Part shown: positions 7,574-57,543 of the stretch, piece after piece
How the letters are laid out: the number at the start of each line of letters is the position of its first letter
Position numbering within the stretch: position 1 is the stretch's first letter
Assembly (NCBI RefSeq): GCF_009931435.1
Contig: NZ_CP043415.1
Length of the DNA: 64,000 bases
Strand: one strand, 5' to 3'
Origin: Escherichia coli
GTDB lineage: Bacteria > Pseudomonadota > Gammaproteobacteria > Enterobacterales > Enterobacteriaceae
Notes under the pieces: generated by a model
Seen by the model: the letters and a program-made list of their open reading frames with translations, nothing else
What the model was told of the DNA's origin: nothing
The model's database searches: none
Translations under genes and position numbers: made by a program

Positions 7574-9771
7574 CAGAAATCATCTCCCGGCTCAACATCC
7601 TCCCCGCGCTCCCGGTGCACATTAATGTTCACCTCTTCACGACGCTGCATCTGCTGCTGGATGTCCGGATGATTTTCCTGTTGCCATGCCTCATAAGCGG
7701 CCATATCCACCACTTCACCGGATTCACTGATCCCGGGTGGCAGTTGCTGTTCCATCTCTTCTTCCGGTTTCATTTTCAGCTCCTGCTCGATCCCCCCTGC
7801 CGGAACATTCACACCTGAATCTGACTTCTTATCGTTGATGGCAGGAGACATCGGCTGTTGCGGCTGTTGCGGCTGTTGCGGCTGTTGCGGCTGTTGCGGC
7901 TGTTGCGGCTGTTCAGCCTGAGTCACGTCTTCTCCGGAAACAACTTCCGGCACATCCGGTTCGAAGAGGCTGGCCATCTGACGACCTTCTGCTTCCCTTG
8001 CGGCAAGTACGGCGCTCAGGCGGTTCTCCATTTCCGGGTTGATGTCACGCGGAATAAACTCAGGGGCAACCTTCGGACGTGCCTGATATTTCAGTGAGAG
8101 TTTTACTGCCGGATACGGTCCGGGCAGGGTGACATAACAGGTCAAATCCGGCAGAGACTGAATGTCGGAATAACTGACCAGCGTCTGGCGCTCCATATCC
8201 TTACCGGTCGATACCCCGTCACGTACCGGATCAGCACCGTAGGAGTACTGCTCGCTGGCTTTCAGGTGCTCTTTCTCACCAATCTCACCGGCAGCGAACT
8301 CTGCAATCTTATGGCTGGGAGAACGGAAAAAGGCACGGGTGTTCATGACGTCAAACAGCGTGGCAGCCGCTTTCTCACCGTAGATATCTTCCAGCTGGGC
8401 ATAGGACTGGATACCAAACACATAACAGCCACCGAACTTACGGGCTTCCGGCAGGATCTCCACCAGGTCCGGCAGTTTGTGTAACGTGGGTAGCTCATCA
8501 CAGAAAAACCACACACGACGGTTACGGTTTTCTCCCATTGCCAGCAGACCACGAATGGCAATGGACAGCCACATGGAGATCACCGGCTTCAGGGAGGCAT
8601 GGGTGTCGGCATTCGACGAGATAAACAGCCAGCCGTTTTTCTGATCTTCCCGGACACCCCGCATCCAGTCACGGATGGTAAAAGACTCACCGTTATGCTC
8701 AATCCCCTGCAGGTAACGGATGGCTTTCACGTAGTTGGTCAGCACAGCACGGATGGAAATCGCCGTTTTCTCAATTTTCTCTTCCACCAGGTTGGCCGCC
8801 GGTGAATTACGCAGGAAGGTACGCAGTTTTTCGATTTTGATGGAAAGCAGTGTGTCCACCAGTTTGCTGTAGCTACGGTTGGGGTCATTACGCATCAGGT
8901 ACGCCGCTTCCGCAAAAATGGTACGTCCTGAACCCTGCCAGAACGGGTCCTCTTTTGTGCCCATCGGGATCAGGGTATTTGCCGTATTATCAAAATCCGG
9001 CTGTGTCAGACACTCCTTCCATAAATCCCAGGCGGCACAGCGGGCATCCAGCGGATTCAGGATTTTATCGATGGAGGGATCATAGTAACTTTTAACAAAT
9101 TCCCCCGAACGGTCATAAATCACCACCATATCACCGCGCTGACGGGCGTAGTTGGCCAGACGACGGATAACTTCCGACTTACCGGCCCCGACCGTGCCGT
9201 GCAGACAGAAGTTCTGGATTTCGGAATCCCGGATAATCGGCAGGTCTCCAATCCGGATATCGGAGTCCTTGCCGTCTTTTTTCAGCATCCGGGCAACGTC
9301 TTTCGGATTGTCTGTCAGCTGACGACCACCTGTGGCTTCATTTTCGCTCTGTTGTTTACCCTGACGCCCCAGAATCCAGGAGACAACAAAGAAGGTAATC
9401 AGGCAAATAACCAGTGCCACAACAGCAGCCAGCACGAAGGCGGACCATAACTGCTCACTGCACCAGATCATATATTTGTCATGCAGTACCTGAGCAGCGT
9501 TCATGCGGAAGGTTTTACCGTAATACTGGATCTCATAGACCGGCTGGGATTTGATTAAATCCCGCATGCCTTCCAGCGTGGTACACCACCAGTAAATACA
9601 GCCGTTCACAAACGTCTGCCAGCTTATTTTTATCCATAAAACCAGACCAACGAGTATCCAGAAAAAAATAAACAGGCAGTAAAGCATGATATTGGCGATC
9701 TGGCTGAACATGCGGATACGCATGGACGCAATCTGACCGCCCTGGGTCATATCCTTTGCGTTAAAACTCAT
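7573..9771 (-). CDS. traD: TraD type IV coupling protein
   Basis: 732 aa, N-terminal TM segments, Walker [10 protein letters not shown]-terminal (QQP)n tract and acidic tail ...EDVEPGDDF. Confidence 0.97.
7852..7905. repeat. 9-bp tandem repeat (CGGCTGTTG)x6 encoding the TraD QQP tract
   Basis: Six perfect tandem copies read directly in the sequence. Confidence 0.9.
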
Positions 9772-31806: not shown

Positions 31807-32454
31807 CTATCTTCCCAATATTTCTTTTACTTTAGCATATAAAGGAAGTATCTTTTCCGTTCTAATCATTTCATCCAACCAGAGATCTCTAGAACTAAAT
31901 CCATGTCGTTTAAATAATTTCATGGTTTTCTTCTTTGATTTAGACACAGTGATGTTCATCTTTGCTGATGAATAATGATGGCTAAACCCTATCAGATATG
32001 GCTCAATGCCTACATATTCATCAGATAGTACAATTAATTCATTGGTGTATTTAGACACAACAAACGATGACAGATTATCATTTGCTACCCAAATAAATCT
32101 CCAGATAAAGAAATAGCCGCATGGTGTGATAACACTTTCTATGATCACACTCCATAACATATTATTAAGTAATATGTCATTATTACAATTTACACCATAA
32201 ACTGAAGAGCATGATTCAATCTCTGCTCTGGATAACTGTAATTTACATTCCAACGTTAAACTATCAAACCATTCATCACATGAATTAAATGACGATCTGA
32301 TAAGTTTTTCAAAGCGGTTATTTTCCTGAATAAAAGAACCATCCTCGAAGCGGACACATACTGGATATTTTAAAAACGAAATAGCCTCTCCAAGACTATG
32401 AGGGAAATGCAATTGACTGATGAGTGCTCTTTCTCTACGATCCATCGCACACAT
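31807..32454 (-). CDS. traJ: TraJ transfer activator (non-F allele); track ORF extends to 32532 but ATG at 32454 with RBS at 32461-32466 is the likely start
   Basis: Position between traM and traY; start lies under the finP stem-loop I complement. Confidence 0.7.
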
Positions 32455-32524
32455 AGGAACCTCCTCTAAGGATTCTATGGACAGTCGATGCAGGGAGTGG
32501 CTGCTCCCTGCATCGGCGATTTTC
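32448..32524 (+). ncRNA. finP: FinP antisense RNA (candidate)
   Basis: Two stem-loops antisense to the traJ RBS/start: CATAGGAA...TTCTATG, then CGATGCAGGGAG-TGGCTG-CTCCCTGCATCG followed by GCGATTTT. Confidence 0.45.
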
Positions 32525-32644
32525 AGTTTCAATTTTTAACGTGGCATTAACCACATAATCAATATACTAATTATTCTGATTATTGTCATCAGTTTGAACC
32601 ATAAAAAACCATGATATTTGAACAAAGTCAAAATTTATTTCACT

Positions 32645-47413: not shown

Positions 47414-47839
47414 TCAGTCCAGTGCCGCGTAAATCGCGTTACATTCGGGGTGAAATTCGATGTGGCTCCACAACTGCGCATCGCGCATCCGGTAAAGCTG
47501 GGTCAGTCCTGCATCCCCACTGTCGTGGTACAGCCACAACTGGCGGTTAATCACAAGGGAAGTCAGAATGATGCCTGCGGCATCGGCGCTGACCGTGCGG
47601 TCAAACCAGTTTTCACCGTTGACCAGATGAAAACGGTCGCCATCCGGCATCATGTAACCGCCACCGTCCGGCAGGCGGATGAAGTGCCAGAATCCGCCTT
47701 CATATTCCGGCATCATTTTTTTCGCCAGCGCGTATACAGACGCTTCGGCATACAGAAAATCCAGGCCAAACAGGTAAGGCAGAAAAGACAGACGGTCGCA
47801 CTCTTCAACGTTCAGAGTGACAGGTTTCGCATACTGCAT
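47414..47839 (-). CDS. ArdB/KlcA-family antirestriction protein (candidate)
   Basis: 141 aa; [20 protein letters not shown] resembles the KlcA/ArdB family as remembered. Confidence 0.65.
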
Positions 47840-48220
47840 GATGTTTTCCTCCGTTGTTCACATATTCCGCGACACCGGGCGGTGCCGTGCCTCCATAAAA
47901 GCCGGGCGATAAGGCGGGGATGCACAGGGCGCAAGGGAAGCCGCAGCCTGACGCACACGGCTGACGGGAGTTGGAGGGTGAGACAGCGAAATCTGAGCGG
48001 GTGAACGACCGGAAAATCACGGCAGACGGGAAGGAGGGACCGGGTGACCGCAGCGGCGAAGCGTACCCTTGCATCCCTGCCAGCCCGGCTAAGATGGAGG
48101 CACGGCACAGCCCGCACACGACACGGCGGCCACATAACTGAAAATCCACAAGGCCATGCCCCGCATGGCTGGGTAAAGCGGAGCCGCCGGCGACTTCCTT
48201 TGTGCTCTGTCCGGGGACCG

Positions 48221-48248
48221 GCAGGAAAAAGGCGGGGATTTCCCCGCC
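48221..48248 (-). terminator. Rho-independent terminator after the 256-aa gene
   Basis: Minus strand GGCGGGGAAATCCCCGCC followed by TTTTT. Confidence 0.5.
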
Positions 48249-48252
48249 ATCA

Positions 48253-49023
48253 TCAGCCCCTGATTTTTGCCAGGGCATCCGCCATGCTGCGGATTTCATC
48301 CCGTGCCTCCAGAACAACCTCCCGCAGAATATCCCGGTCAAACCAGCGACGGGACGGTTCATCCGGTATACGCAGCACATCACAGACCAGACCACTGGCC
48401 AGGATATGCTCCACACACTCACAGACCAGGTACATTTCCACAGAGGAAAAACGTGCGCCACGGTTCAGAATGGCATCGAGCACCACGGGCAGATTTTCGT
48501 CATCTTCATCAAGCCAGCAGGGGTAATCGCTTTCCTTCACAACCAGACGAAAGCGGCGCGTCTGGCGGGTCAGCAACGTCTGACCGGTGGTGGTCAGCGC
48601 CGCCCGGATACGCCGCGCATCGTCTGCCACCTGGTAACAGATGCTTCGTACTGCATTGCGCACCGCATCAAGAACTGCCCTGATTTCGTCTTCGGTCAGC
48701 CATTCACCGGCATACGGAAAAGACACCTGTGTTCCGTCTGCCGGAAGTACCGGCAGCGACTGCCACTGACTGCCGGACAGAACAAGTTCCGCCCCGGTTC
48801 CGGTCAGTTTCTGAATGGCGGAGGCCAGGTGCGGCGGCAGTACGCCATCGTGGCGGTTAACGAGTAACGTCGCCAGCCGGGGCGCATCCAGCCGCACGTA
48901 AATGCTGATCCAGCCCGGATACTTCAGGTTACGCTGGTCAACATCCGTCTCTTCCGGCCAGCCCTGCGCCAGCAGCAGGTCGCGGGCATGACGACAAATC
49001 AGTGCATTCAGCGTTTTATTCAT
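48253..49023 (-). CDS. Hypothetical protein, 256 aa
   Basis: ORF track only; no recognised motif. Confidence 0.6.
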
Positions 49024-50421: not shown

Positions 50422-50804
50422 ACAAAACGCCTTCTCTTACAGAGGGCACCGGGAGGGCACCCCTGTGGTGCCCGTTCCCCGCTGCCTGTGGGCTGTTCAC
50501 CGCGTCCGGTAACGGGTCAGGCCGACCGTGGAATACCGCAGCCGTCGTCTGTTTGACGGCAAGGTTATGCCGCGAAAGCGGCTTGAAGGGCGTTCATCAG
50601 AAAAGGGCGACAGGCTGGCGTACACTGTCACCGACGCCAGCCGGGAGCGGTAAAAGCGCCCGTCCCGTGCCCGCCGGACGCGGGACACTGACCACAGGCA
50701 GCGTTTATGCCGCGCCGCGTCAGCCGGCGCAGTAAAAAGAGGAGCATGGCGACATCCTTTACCGGAAAAGAAACGGGCAGTTGCCCGCCCGTCTCCGTCA
50801 TACT

Positions 50805-51707
50805 TCATCCACCGTAATGCGCCACCTTGTCGACTATCCACGCAGGTCCGGTGACTTCCGGCAGCTCATCGTCATCTGTCGGGGAAGACCATTCCAGTTC
50901 CCCCCACAGCACATCAACAAGCTCTCCACGCTCATATCGCTGCCAGCCACAGAAATTGCAGCCCTGTTCGGCGTACCAGTGCTCCAGCGTGCAGCCGAAA
51001 CGGCGGCTTAATTCTGCAACAACGTCGCTTTCCGGCTGACACCACGGCGTGTCGAAATCCACCTGAATGAAGTTTTCCCCCTGACTGCTGATATTCAGGT
51101 CATACCCACAAGGCCACTTCACGCCATACCGTTCTGTATACCAGTGATATGCAGAAGGAACACCGTTCAGAACACCACCGTTAAAGCCATTCACTTCAAC
51201 ATCCAGGCGGGTCGGCAGAACCGTCAGCAGGTCAAACGGCATGGTTTTTTCCGGCACTACGTTGTCACACAGACGGTTCCACCACACCGATACATCCTCG
51301 TTACCCCAGATGTCACACCAGTCACCTCTTTTTGCGGTGAAATGCACAGTGATGGTTTCCCTGACATCATCCGGTAACCCTTCCCAGCGACGCTGTCCAG
51401 TACCGCTCTGCAGCCAGAGTTCATGCAGCATCAGGCAGTTTTGCTCATCCAGCAGTACACCGTTCTGCAGGTGTGTCAGCCAGCGGGTGAACGCGATATT
51501 TTCCGTCGATACAGCACCACGTCCGGCAGCCGTCACTCCGGGGCACTGCTCAGAGCGGATATTTTCAGTGATCTGCAGAAGTCCGGCACTTCCGGCCAGA
51601 AACAGCTGAATACCTTCATTTGTGGCGCGGCGATAAAACGGTGTGACTGCACCGCTGGCCCGTCGTTTAATCTCAGCAATCTGTGCCGGTTCACCAGAAA
51701 AATGCAT
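50805..51707 (-). CDS. Hypothetical protein, 300 aa; ATG sits at the predicted 3' end of the group II intron
   Basis: ORF track; Trp/Cys-rich; no family assigned. Confidence 0.6.
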   Translation of the reverse strand: MHFSGEPAQIAEIKRRASGAVTPFYRRATNEGIQLFLAGSAGLLQITENIRSEQCPGVTAAGRGAVSTENIAFTRWLTHLQNGVLLDEQNCLMLHELWLQSGTGQRRWEGLPDDVRETITVHFTAKRGDWCDIWGNEDVSVWWNRLCDNVVPEKTMPFDLLTVLPTRLDVEVNGFNGGVLNGVPSAYHWYTERYGVKWPCGYDLNISSQGENFIQVDFDTPWCQPESDVVAELSRRFGCTLEHWYAEQGCNFCGWQRYERGELVDVLWGELEWSSPTDDDELPEVTGPAWIVDKVAHYGG

Positions 51708-54096
51708 ACGATCGGGTAGCAGTGATGCATTACTGCATCACCGCCCCCTAAGAACCGTACGTGCCAGTTTCCCGGCATACGGCTCAAGCCTTTCTAAGCC
51801 CACTCTCATGAGCCGGTTTCACTACATGTATACCTTTCGCATGAACAAGTGTGTGACACATCGGATGCAGCATAATCAAATTGGAGAGGCAGTTGCTCCC
51901 TCCATCGACTCGCCGTATGATGTGATGAACCTGCCACTGGGAATCAGATGTAATCCTCTCATCACATATGGGGCATCGGCCCCGCTGCTCAAACCAGATT
52001 TGAATGAGCTTTTTCCGTCCTTGCAGTTTGTGCCGCATTTTGTCTGCACAACGCTCCTCAAAGTACATCTCCCATTGAGGATCGAACGGATTAGCTGCAA
52101 TTTTAATCGGTTTAAACCGGTTGATAGGCGTATCGATTGCTTTCCTCAGATTTGCATACTGAGGCTTACCGTTGGCAAGGAGTTCTCCGGTAGCCGTGGA
52201 GAAAGACCAGTTTCGGGCACCTTGTTGATGGAAATATCTTTTCCGAATCCACTTCTTTCCCTTATTGGGATGACGCCGAACAGCCCAACGCCATAAAGCC
52301 AGCCAGATCTCATTGTCAACTTTGTTAAATGCGACCTTGGCCACAATGTGTTGATGGTAAGCCGCCCACCCTTTGATCATTGGGTTCAGCATGCGGATCA
52401 ACGTAAGCTGATCCATAGCTTTGTTGCCTTTGATTACAGCGCGTATTTTCTTTAAAAAGGAACTGACATTGGCTTTAGAGGGTTTGATCAGCATCTTACC
52501 GCCATATTTGCGAATGTTCTGTCCAAGAAAATCAAATCCTTCCTCGATATGTGTGATTTTCGTCTTTTCCGGAGAAAGCATTAATCCTCTTTCAGCCATA
52601 AACCGCCTGACGACGGGTAATACCTGAGACTCAAGAAGTTCTTTTGACTCTCCAGTGATAATAAAATCATCAGCATATCTCACATAGTTAACTTTCGGGT
52701 TAACCAATCGTCCCTTGACTGTTCTCTTTTTAAACTCCGAAGCAAGAAGCGCCTCCAGTCCATCCAGAGCAATGTTAGCCAGTACAGGAGAAATTATTCC
52801 CCCCTGAGGAGTTCCTGAATTTACAGGGAATAACTGCCCCTTTTCCCTGTAACCCGCTTTAAGCCACTTTGTCAGGATTTGTCTGTCTGTTGAGGTGTTA
52901 TCGATTAGCCATTGATGAGATATATTGTCAAAGCATCCCCGTATATCCCCCTCAAGCACCCATTCAGCGGATGTTTTCTGCGCAAGAACACAGAAGCACT
53001 GTGCTATCGCATCTGCAGTAGACCTTCCAGTCCGAAAGCCGAAGGATCTCTGGTCAGCAGTGACTTCAGCAACGGGCTCAAGAGCCAGCAAATACAACGC
53101 CTGCATCGCCCGATCCTTCATAGTGGGTATCCCAAGGGGACGAGACTTCCCATTTGACTTAGGTATATAAACCCGCTTAAGTGGCTGTGGTTTGTAACCA
53201 CGCCGTTTCAGCAGGTTAATAGCAAGAAATTTAACCTCCGGGGAAGACCATGTCTGACCATCAACCCCAGGAGTACGTTTCCCGCTATTCTCTGTAACTC
53301 GTCTGACAGCAACTGCTCTGCCACTAAACGAGTGAGTCAGTATCCATTGCAAGGATTTGACCTTGCCATGTTTACCTTCTCGTGTTGCCTTTACGATACG
53401 CGCTTGCAGTCTCCGCACTTCCCGATAGCACTGACGCCAGTTGATACTGTGCCAGGAGTCACCGTTAAGTAAGGACGCACCTTTACAGGTTGTAGCCTGC
53501 TCAGTCATCTGCTTTTCCTTTCTGGAAGATTACTCAAACTCTCTCGTAATGAAAGACCCAGTGGAAGTCTGCCCGCTTTCGCGTAGGGTAATGTTGCCGG
53601 GCTCAACCCTTATCCGGTCCATTACAGACTGGCATTCGCTTTTTCCACCTTCTTTTACCCGCACCGCCAACAGTATCCCTTGCGGTTAACCTGCCTCACG
53701 AGGCAGCGATACGGGCTTACCATGTTCCACCTGAATAACAACAGTAGGTTAGACTCTGCTCACAACACCGGTGGTTTATTGTCCGTGTACCCCTAGCAAA
53801 CAGAGGAGTAACCAACCACATACCTTTTGGTTCAAGCCTGTCAGCATCTTTGGCTTGTTCTGGTTAACGACGCTTCAGCAGTTCACATATGTTAGTCATG
53901 CTACCGAGCCTAGACCTCCTCCGCCTGATGCTGGCAGATTACATGTAACCTCACGGTTTCATGCGATCCGAAGATCCGGTTTCATTGTCCTGACAGCTTC
54001 ACACCCCACCGTTACCAGTGACGCATGTGTCAGTAGGCTACTGATGACGGAACATCAGGTTCCCTGACGGAATCGAACTCCGCTGGAACAATTATT
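51708..54096 (-). mobile_element. Group II intron (3' boundary approximate)
   Basis: 5' end GTGCGAC (complement of 54096-54090); domain V GAGCCGTATGCCGGGAAACTGGCACGTACGGTTC at 51752-51785; internal RT ORF. Confidence 0.8.
51784..53508 (-). CDS. Group II intron-encoded reverse transcriptase/maturase with C-terminal HNH endonuclease
   Basis: 574 aa; YADD motif; maturase region; HH...C..C HNH-like C-terminus. Confidence 0.95.
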   Translation of the reverse strand: MTEQATTCKGASLLNGDSWHSINWRQCYREVRRLQARIVKATREGKHGKVKSLQWILTHSFSGRAVAVRRVTENSGKRTPGVDGQTWSSPEVKFLAINLLKRRGYKPQPLKRVYIPKSNGKSRPLGIPTMKDRAMQALYLLALEPVAEVTADQRSFGFRTGRSTADAIAQCFCVLAQKTSAEWVLEGDIRGCFDNISHQWLIDNTSTDRQILTKWLKAGYREKGQLFPVNSGTPQGGIISPVLANIALDGLEALLASEFKKRTVKGRLVNPKVNYVRYADDFIITGESKELLESQVLPVVRRFMAERGLMLSPEKTKITHIEEGFDFLGQNIRKYGGKMLIKPSKANVSSFLKKIRAVIKGNKAMDQLTLIRMLNPMIKGWAAYHQHIVAKVAFNKVDNEIWLALWRWAVRRHPNKGKKWIRKRYFHQQGARNWSFSTATGELLANGKPQYANLRKAIDTPINRFKPIKIAANPFDPQWEMYFEERCADKMRHKLQGRKKLIQIWFEQRGRCPICDERITSDSQWQVHHIIRRVDGGSNCLSNLIMLHPMCHTLVHAKGIHVVKPAHESGLRKA

Positions 54097-54491
54097 CAGG
54101 CGACTTCATGTCGCACATTTGAGCACCAGTTTGGCATGGGAATTCTCCTCTCACATGCGGCCTCCACCAGGCCGTGCCGCACCTGTAACCGGGCGACCGC
54201 ATACGAATGCAGGTGCGGCCCCGAAGCCGCAGCGCGTGGAGGAGGAACGACGAAACGTGACCGGGTGAGGAGGCCGGCGACAGCGACACACTTGCATCGG
54301 ATGCAGCCCGGTTAACGTGCCGGCACGGCCTGGGTAACCAGGTATTTTGTCCACAGAACCGTGCACAAAATGCTGTGGATAAGCTGGACACAGCCGTCCA
54401 CAGCAGGCATACAGCCACACCCTCAGAGAATTGAGCGTTTTTTAGTCACAATAATGACATTTGACTGTGTGTGGATTCAGTTATTAGAATA

Positions 54492-56570: not shown

Positions 56571-57543
56571 TAGTCACACCACCTTTCATTTTTATCATTC
56601 CCATGACTAAATCAAACTGCGGGGATGAGCTCAGATAAAAGCGCTCATCAGGAACCTTAGTCAGGTTCTTCACAGCCTCGGCCACAATTTCAGCCCCACC
56701 ACCAACACACATTACATGTGTATAGTCGGTGAAACGGCTGATGACATCATTAACTCGTTTAATAAGCAACTTCTGCCGTTCATTGATAACATTAATGATA
56801 GACTCACGCTGTTCAGCATTATAAATGCGACGGGAAAGGTAGTCAGGTTCATTACGGTGCACAATGATATTGTCAGCCTGGAATGAGCTCACTCTTGTAT
56901 TAGCATGTACAGCCATCTGTTCCTTAACCCCGGATGTAATCAGGGACACGCCGATATTCGGATCACACCAGGTTTTTGTAATCCCTGTCATTTTGCTACG
57001 AACATGCGACACATCAAGAGTTGTACCACCGAGATCTACGATCAAAAGGGATTCATCATCCTCAAGCCCCGCAAGAACACTGAAACCAGCGGGAATACTT
57101 TCAGGAAGAACGGAAACACTGCGAATAACAAATGCATCACTCCCCTGCACCCGTACTTCACGCATCACATTTTTTTTCTTTCTTTCAATGTTTTGCTTAT
57201 TTTTCTGATTGTTGGCGTCAAGGTATTCAGAGATCGGCAATGTGACGATGACATCAATAGGCTGCGCTTTCAGGCCGGTCTGCTGTAGCGCATGCTGAAT
57301 GGCCACAACATTCACATCACTGTACTGATAGCGTGTTTCAGTCGTTACGACAGCATCAGCACTTAATGGATCAAATGAAAACTTCTCGCCGTCGATCTCG
57401 TAATTAGCCGGGGCAGCATCATCCAGTAAACTAAAAGACCATTCCGGTTTAAAGCTGTTAGGGCTGATTAACGTTTTCACGTCACCATCCTCCAACCAGG
57501 CAAGTTTAATGTTGGTAGAACCATCATCAATAAAGATTTTCAT
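56563..57543 (-). CDS. parM: ParM/StbA actin-like segregation ATPase; start MKIFIDDGSTNIKL (track ORF extends to 57612)
   Basis: Strong similarity to R1 ParM as remembered (IDDGSTNIKL, DLGGTTLD, GGGAE motifs). Confidence 0.9.
   Translation of the reverse strand: MKIFIDDGSTNIKLAWLEDGDVKTLISPNSFKPEWSFSLLDDAAPANYEIDGEKFSFDPLSADAVVTTETRYQYSDVNVVAIQHALQQTGLKAQPIDVIVTLPISEYLDANNQKNKQNIERKKKNVMREVRVQGSDAFVIRSVSVLPESIPAGFSVLAGLEDDESLLIVDLGGTTLDVSHVRSKMTGITKTWCDPNIGVSLITSGVKEQMAVHANTRVSSFQADNIIVHRNEPDYLSRRIYNAEQRESIINVINERQKLLIKRVNDVISRFTDYTHVMCVGGGAEIVAEAVKNLTKVPDERFYLSSSPQFDLVMGMIKMKGGVTNE

Follow-up and report, generated by a model that had tools for sequence, protein, structure and literature searches.

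An IncF plasmid copy of the class 2 single-stranded DNA promoter (Frpo3/ssp2) as the probable driver of the klcA/ardB anti-restriction operon

What could be the function of a long, GC-rich and structured region which precedes an anti-restriction gene of a conjugative plasmid and carries no recognizable gene? The question is raised by a non-coding gap of 413 bp (47840-48252) in a 64,000-nt stretch of an IncF conjugative plasmid, hereafter the window. The gap is flanked by two genes of the - strand. It begins at the stop codon of a yffB-like gene (48253-49023, -, from the list of open reading frames), which encodes a hypothetical protein of 256 aa, shows substitutions biased to third codon positions and occupies the same place as hypothetical genes of pBCE049-1, pESBL and F. 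On its other side lies a klcA/ardB-like anti-restriction gene (47414-47839, -; yfgB in F), recognized by the Pfam profile PF03230 (Antirestrict, E = 2.1e-26) and labelled antirestriction protein in homologous records, which would be the first gene driven by the element discussed here. A preliminary description had suggested that this region could be a distinct single-strand promoter, an sRNA or a regulatory element of the anti-restriction gene.

The GC content of the gap is 0.62-0.66, compared with ~0.50-0.60 in the flanks, which agrees with its earlier characterization as GC-rich. The terminator reported at its upstream edge is also present: a terminator scan places GGCGGGGAAATCCCCGCC, with a TTTTT run after it, at 48248-48231 on the - strand. 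This intrinsic terminator of the yffB-like gene (48231-48248) has a 7-bp all-GC stem, a 4-nt loop and a T5 tail. It does not form part of the repeated class 2 unit defined below and is missing from the ardA-linked copy of pESBL. A conserved palindrome, GGCCATGCCCCGCATGGCC (48147-48170), is situated ~35 nt outside the base of the main hairpin and contains an 8-bp helix (48152-48159 / 48163-48170). It is kept in all copies and on the - strand resembles a second, weaker terminator (scan match 48165-48147). The Rfam family AS-pc01 ('Antisense to pHK01_035') has a true match at 45997-46096 (+), adjoining a class 1 copy, and a sub-threshold echo at 48152-48252 (+; 20.5 bits, E = 0.57) over the terminator and this small palindrome. 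The echo at the edge of the class 2 unit is probably due to chance.

The orientation of transfer could be derived from the F-type nic sequence GTGGGGTGT/GGTGCTTT, an exact match to which is located at 33361-33377 on the + strand; from established knowledge of the F oriT we take this to be the nic site. The + strand is thus the transferred (T) strand. In F transfer the T strand goes in 5' end first, here toward higher coordinates. Genes of the leading region (hok/sok, psiB, ssb, klcA and the methylase gene) are all located on the - strand, and the T strand is therefore their template. The element is situated 14.5 kb inside the leading region and, as is characteristic of class 2, the gene next to it, klcA, is templated by the T strand. 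Rfam recognizes in the window a group II intron, sok (36558-36734), the traJ 5' UTR/FinP (32448-32556) and antisense RNAs located within traI and traG. Among database entries pBCE049-1 (IncFIA/FIB/FIC) gives the best match, with 100% identity across the element. Gene order (methylase, DUF1380, yffB-like gene, gap, klcA, DUF1380) is common to the window, pESBL and F.

Elements of this kind have been described in pESBL and F. Six operons of pESBL (NC_018659.1) were found by Wen et al. (NAR 2025, PMC12672017) to be induced in early transconjugants; hairpins were mined by these authors with a 300-nt sliding fold, and all six start sites, including that of the pESBL klcA copy, were determined in transconjugants by 5' RACE. 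The hairpins of klcA and ardA were assigned to class 2 of the ssDNA promoters, as opposed to class 1 (Frpo/ssi) and class 3 (the M.EcoGIX hairpin), and classes 2 and 3 were reported in F as well (PMC12672017). The F copy was found independently by Shaw et al. and named Frpo3 (bioRxiv 10.1101/2025.04.03.647016). Fraikin et al. call it ssp2 and place it between yffB and yfgB of F; in their work ssp2 was required for expression of the ArdB homologue yfgB and for transfer into restricting hosts (bioRxiv 10.64898/2026.01.09.698686). Complementary-strand synthesis stalls at the ssp2 stem, and UvrD is needed to pass it; deletion of ssp2 leads to faster conversion of downstream loci, and replacement of ssp2 by ssp3 keeps expression but abolishes the stall (bioRxiv 10.64898/2026.01.09.698686).

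The gap of the window closely matches these sequences. Its mean column identity to positions 56958-57370 of pESBL (NC_018659.1; L003:11958-12370) is 97% in a MAFFT alignment, and its identity to the same klcA-upstream gap is 94% in a global alignment with gaps counted. Identity to the yffB-yfgB gap of F (L016:8343-8755) amounts to 96.9%, and the gaps of the window, pESBL and F are all 413 bp long. Similarity to the klcA-upstream gap of pESBL and to the F gap extends over the full 413 bp. A second class 2 copy precedes ardA in pESBL; no such second, ardA-linked copy is present in the window. A three-way alignment of the window with the klcA and ardA upstream regions of pESBL, together with an alignment of thirteen copies, delimits the stretch common to the klcA- and ardA-linked copies as the class 2 ssDNA-promoter unit (47847-48200, +). 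The unit extends from the inner side of the terminator to a Shine-Dalgarno sequence GGAGGA (47847-47852, -), 7 nt before the klcA ATG, which is kept in both klcA and ardA copies. With ~94-97% identity to proven non-Frpo ssDNA promoters of pESBL and F, the option of a distinct single-strand promoter is the one that is supported. The element has already been described and tested by others in 2025-2026; the present identification is independent but is not a discovery.

The region had also been judged not to be a copy of the Frpo-like repeat, and rightly: a BLAST comparison against the window reveals no similarity between the gap and the class 1 (Frpo-like) copies at 35515-36141, 42885-43525 and 46220-46669, which match Frpo1/Frpo2 of F at 81-98%. 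Class 1 elements (Frpo, ssi1-3) were reportedly described by Masai and Arai in 1997. Class 1 and class 2 are alike in having long imperfect hairpins on the T strand, in their location in the leading region, in carrying promoter boxes in the stem and in reading toward oriT. Class 2 differs in being shorter and less stable (-87 compared with -110 to -119 kcal/mol) and dissimilar in sequence. Moreover, class 2 is linked to anti-restriction genes and class 1 to ssb or psiB, and a roadblock is reported for class 2 only.

Folding analysis, recommended in the preliminary description, was performed on both strands. The 413-nt gap folds better than dinucleotide shuffles (z = -5.2 for the + strand and -4.1 for the - strand), and the core (47866-48124) does so to a greater extent (z = -5.9 and -4.85, respectively), none of 100-200 shuffles folding as well. 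When regressed on GC content, the 300-nt fold energy at this locus is only ~1.3-1.7 SD below expectation. The T strand folds better than its complement: the hairpin 47876-48114 has -70.1 kcal/mol on the + strand compared with -62.0 kcal/mol. Inverted repeats, noted earlier as palindromes, do exist here. Their arms are located at 47876-47907 / 48083-48114 (32 nt, 88% complementary) and at 47913-47924 / 48070-48081. The pair given as an example, GCAAGGG (47932-38) and CCCTTGC (48066-72), is real as sequence but is not the pairing of the best fold; in the minimum-energy structure CCCTTGC mostly pairs with GGATGCA..AGGG instead.

The main hairpin consists of arm A (47876-47930, +), arm B (48066-48114, +) and an apical domain (47931-48065). 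From the base inward, the stem starts with 5 bp and a G.A mismatch, followed by a perfect 15-bp helix (47882-47896 / 48094-48108). It continues through a 3x3 mismatch, in which A47897-A47899 are opposite A48091, A48092 and G48093, to a helix of 8 bp. The upper part has bulges on arm A only and 12 bp (47913-47924 / 48070-48081), above which the apical domain of 135 nt begins. The base of the hairpin is 37 nt before the klcA start codon.

Transcription of klcA requires RNA polymerase to travel toward lower coordinates; consequently, in the promoter duplex arising from folding of the T strand, the role of template falls to arm A and that of non-template strand to arm B, the 5' to 3' sequence of which is CCCTTGCATCCCTGCCAGCCCGGCTAAGATGGAGG. 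From this sequence we infer a -35-like box TTGCAT (48069-48074, +; our own assignment) and a -10-like box TAAGAT (48090-48095, +), directly downstream of which lies the 15-bp helix. A large stem-loop rebuilding promoter boxes in its stem, typical of class 2, is thereby found, given this choice of boxes. Matches of the two boxes to the consensus are weak (3/6 and 4/6). The spacer between the boxes on arm B measures 15 nt in the window (type a, see below), and its type b counterpart 20 nt; these lengths are compatible with sigma-70 only on extrusion of the bulged nucleotides. The motif CTTGCATC-N5-CAGCCCGGYTAA occurs twice in the 64 kb, both times on the T strand, compared with 0.00 occurrences expected. 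In the modelled fold the 3x3 mismatch bubble would cover positions -11 to -9 of the -10 box and leave the box pre-melted.

Transcription is predicted to start at 47886-47890 (~47888, -), 7 +/- 2 nt past the -10 box, a position derived from the geometry of the fold. A start at ~47888 would give a 5' UTR of ~49 nt ending in GGAGGA-N7-ATG. The published pESBL start lies inside the hairpin, in agreement with the prediction for an ssDNA promoter (PMC12672017). A sigma-70-type duplex promoter was not found by a promoter scan of 47300-48700, nor does the duplex contain one with a spacing of 16-18 nt.

The gap is 89-94% identical across IncF/IncI plasmids, and third codon positions of klcA differ by 15-18%. 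Free variation among related plasmids, which the preliminary description would have taken as a refutation, is contradicted by this conservation, and the lack of a transcription start, named there as well, is contradicted by the start mapped in the pESBL copy. At least 5000 enterobacterial plasmids carry the element, with identities of 80-100%. In an alignment of thirteen copies the outer stem does not vary. These thirteen copies fall into two types: type a comprises the window, F, pESBL and pKPC2_090045, and type b comprises pCFSAN027346-2, pJNE141411-1, Klebsiella pneumoniae ATCC 13883 and others. The mid-stem between the boxes is replaced on both arms in type b, with the hairpin retained (-92 kcal/mol), and TTGCAA is found in place of TTGCAT. 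The five extra bulged bases, which belong to arm A in type a, are transferred to arm B in type b; ~15 stacked rungs separate the boxes in either type. Variants of the -10 box (TACGAT, TAACGT) retain the first T, the A and the final T, and the mismatches are always present.

The arm replacement could have been regarded as compensatory, but this argument was dropped. Chimeras of type a and type b arms made in silico have fold energies of -70.0 and -79.5 kcal/mol compared with -72.3 and -77.6 kcal/mol for the natural pairs. Since the chimeras fold equally well, the replacement is not clean evidence of covariation. Arm A of type b is nearly an exact complement of arm B of type a. Diverged copies were sought with an exact 25-nt apical pattern in one genome per species; only nine loci were found, all of them near-identical enterobacterial plasmid sequence, and hence no deep covariation analysis is possible. 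Near-identical copies also occur on contigs labelled as Streptomyces morookaense, Oscillospiraceae, Oscillibacter, Collinsella MAGs and Acinetobacter idrijaensis (L007-L011, L013). Contamination or mis-binning is the most likely origin of these copies.

Given that homology, gene order, strand, fold, conservation and the box motif coincide in the absence of a duplex promoter, the region is very probably the IncF copy of the class 2 ssDNA promoter (Frpo3/ssp2) driving the klcA/ardB anti-restriction operon. Compared with the class 2 elements of pESBL and F, it has the same position between a yffB-like gene and klcA, the same strand relative to oriT and the same hairpin; the window differs by small substitutions only, all three being of type a. 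The start site, the activity restricted to ssDNA and the stalling would be expected on this plasmid by extension from the ~94-97% identical copies.

The following sequence of events could be proposed. During conjugation the + strand would enter the recipient 5' first from nic (~33370), and the element would arrive single-stranded. The segment 47876-48114 would then fold back, the stem of the long imperfect hairpin mimicking duplex promoter DNA, with arm B providing the non-template TTGCAT and TAAGAT, arm A serving as template and three mismatched pairs keeping the -10 box pre-melted. Host sigma-70 RNA polymerase could start at ~47888 and read the T strand toward lower coordinates, the transcript running through the strong Shine-Dalgarno sequence into klcA and the genes that follow, at a time when the complementary strand has not yet been synthesized. 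When this strand is made, the hairpin would be lost and the box spacers would become ~19-20 nt on the klcA-directed strand and 15 nt on the opposite strand, which would explain a promoter silent as duplex. By homology with ssp2 of F, the stem-loop could also stall complementary-strand synthesis coming from the yffB side until the hairpin is opened by UvrD, and the stall would prolong the single-stranded, expressing phase of everything nearer oriT.

Such an element would explain how anti-restriction proteins are produced before the incoming plasmid becomes double-stranded, outrunning restriction by the recipient. Published work on F suggests that it also sets the length of the protected window by pausing DNA synthesis. 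In carrier plasmids, many of which have resistance genes, the element is almost never annotated, and the rare annotations call it a hypothetical protein.

The structural basis of the roadblock is less obvious. Fold energies of the three classes in the window are -87 kcal/mol for class 2 compared with -98 and -110 to -119 kcal/mol for the others; class 2 is thus the least stable, and overall stability fails to explain why a block is reported for it only. The longest perfect helix was considered as the cause and rejected, since 15 bp here compared with 12-17 bp in the other classes is not distinctive. The apical domain (135 nt, +) has 69% purine and 8% T. It does not fold better than shuffles (z = +0.86), and its sequence is near-invariant in the 13 copies (8 variable columns of ~127). 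Arm A contains a G4-like motif (47904-47937), the only one on the + strand of the window. In the F leading region a G4-like motif is present on the transferred strand only in the class 2 template arm, and in pESBL such motifs are confined to the two class 2 copies, one in each; in type b the motif is retained, with shorter loops, despite the replaced sequence. The motif scores 1.4 in a G4Hunter-style calculation, 27 regions of the window reach at least 1.2, and mononucleotide shuffles give ~1.3 G4-like motifs per strand. Given the modest score and the shuffle result, a G-quadruplex is a weak idea on its own and was kept only as a low-probability reading.

Considering the least stable fold, the invariant unstructured apical domain and the G4-like template arm together, class 2 might consist of two modules, a promoter stem and a separate roadblock determinant beyond simple hairpin stability; we regard this as a speculative and rather unlikely arrangement. 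If it is correct, a mini-hairpin at 54167-54333 (see below), which has neither the apical domain nor the G4-like motif, would act as a seventh ssDNA promoter but would not form a roadblock.

The transcript of the hairpin could alternatively serve chiefly as an RNA primer for the complementary strand, klcA expression being secondary. The architecture found here resembles that of class 1. Elements of the Frpo type were originally discovered as signals for priming, and in vivo the conversion is primed by ssp1/Frpo transcripts (PMC12672017; bioRxiv 10.64898/2026.01.09.698686). The published conversion data point the other way for class 2: F yfgB, just downstream of ssp2, shows ~4% early conversion compared with 24-48% downstream of the ssp1 promoters, and ssp2 delayed synthesis rather than starting it (bioRxiv 10.64898/2026.01.09.698686). 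The distance of 37 nt between the hairpin base and the klcA start codon and the Shine-Dalgarno sequence 7 nt upstream of that codon likewise suit expression of klcA. Priming as the chief function is therefore very unlikely, and Frpo-like priming as a side function of the promoter is possible.

Activity at the RNA level, i.e., as an sRNA or as a structured klcA 5' leader or attenuator transcribed from a conventional duplex promoter, is still less probable. In its favour, folding of the - strand likewise exceeds that of shuffles (z = -4.1 to -4.85), and a second terminator-like hairpin is present (48165-48147). Nevertheless, no Rfam family reaches its gathering score in 47840-48252, and the sRNA option of the preliminary description thus finds no support; the best matches score 22.2 and 20.5 bits, below their respective cut-offs of 44 and 79, and sit at the terminator edge. 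No duplex promoter was found, as stated above, and it is the T strand, not the RNA-sense strand, that folds better. Since the start of the published homologue is inside the hairpin, most of the hairpin would be outside the klcA mRNA.

A protein-coding function has practically no likelihood: although a 190-aa 'DUF1472 domain-containing protein' is annotated across the element in some records (in CP043366.1 as CDS 1473-2045, equal to 47812-48384 of the window, spanning the element and overlapping the klcA start) and mechanical ORFs of 107-218 aa cross it in the window, neither the window ORF nor the CP043366.1 CDS gives a Pfam hit at E <= 10, all frames are shifted by single-base indels among the copies, most records annotate nothing at the element, and in a 56-aa + strand ORF (47971-48141) the six variable apical sites, read by hand, fall mostly at first codon positions. 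Lacking a Pfam match and containing frame-breaking indels, the CP043366.1 CDS is almost certainly an over-prediction, and the same features of the crossing ORFs (e.g., 47805-48461) bear out the earlier remark that the region has no convincing ORF.

The class 2 promoter is one of several hairpins of the leading region. A 300-nt sliding fold of the transferred strand shows sustained stable runs in the window at the three class 1 copies, at the element (-78 kcal/mol), at 50.45 kb (-89.5 kcal/mol) and at 54.1 kb (-76.6 kcal/mol), with scattered weaker windows elsewhere, e.g., at 41.3-41.9 kb. Exactly six windows below -75 kcal/mol are obtained for pESBL; they match the six promoters of Wen et al. 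(PMC12672017) and are located ahead of the methylase gene, klcA, ssb, ardA and two further genes.

The strong hairpin at 50428-50751 (-89.5 kcal/mol per 300 nt) is located directly upstream of the DNA methylase gene and matches the pESBL window 9460-9759; it therefore corresponds to the published class 3 (ssp3) promoter. Like class 2, class 3 (the M.EcoGIX promoter) is a non-Frpo hairpin promoter of the same gene block. Its sequence is unrelated and another gene is driven by it, and it is reported to be of similar strength but without roadblock activity. A CDS at 50497-50808 (-), annotated as a 103-aa 'hypothetical protein', overlaps this hairpin. Its product is rich in arginine, its frame is shifted by a 1-nt indel when F is compared with the window, and its substitutions are distributed 3/1/2 by codon position. 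Judged by sequence, this CDS looks spurious.

A class-2-like mini-hairpin is located at 54167-54333 (+; 167 nt, -52 kcal/mol, z = -4.5), ~30 nt upstream of the start of an interrupted DUF1281 gene. Its non-template arm CTTGCATCGGATGCAGCCCGGTTAACGTG (motif at 54291-54315) matches the class 2 promoter arm, with 0.00 chance matches expected, and an internal loop lies within the -10-like box. The mini-hairpin is conserved in pESBL and F, and 4361 plasmids carry it without annotation; its fold energy does not reach the -75 kcal/mol threshold used in the published scan. By its sequence features it may represent a seventh, unreported ssDNA promoter.

The DUF1281 gene is interrupted by a group II intron (51711-54116, -), with Rfam domains at 51711-51787 and 53913-54059 and a reverse transcriptase ORF at 51784-53508. 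By comparison with pESBL, it is inserted ~21 nt into the DUF1281 coding sequence, directly downstream of the 54167-54333 hairpin. If this hairpin is a promoter, the intron would be transcribed early from the transferred strand. A second intron, adjoining ssb, is present in pBCE049-1.
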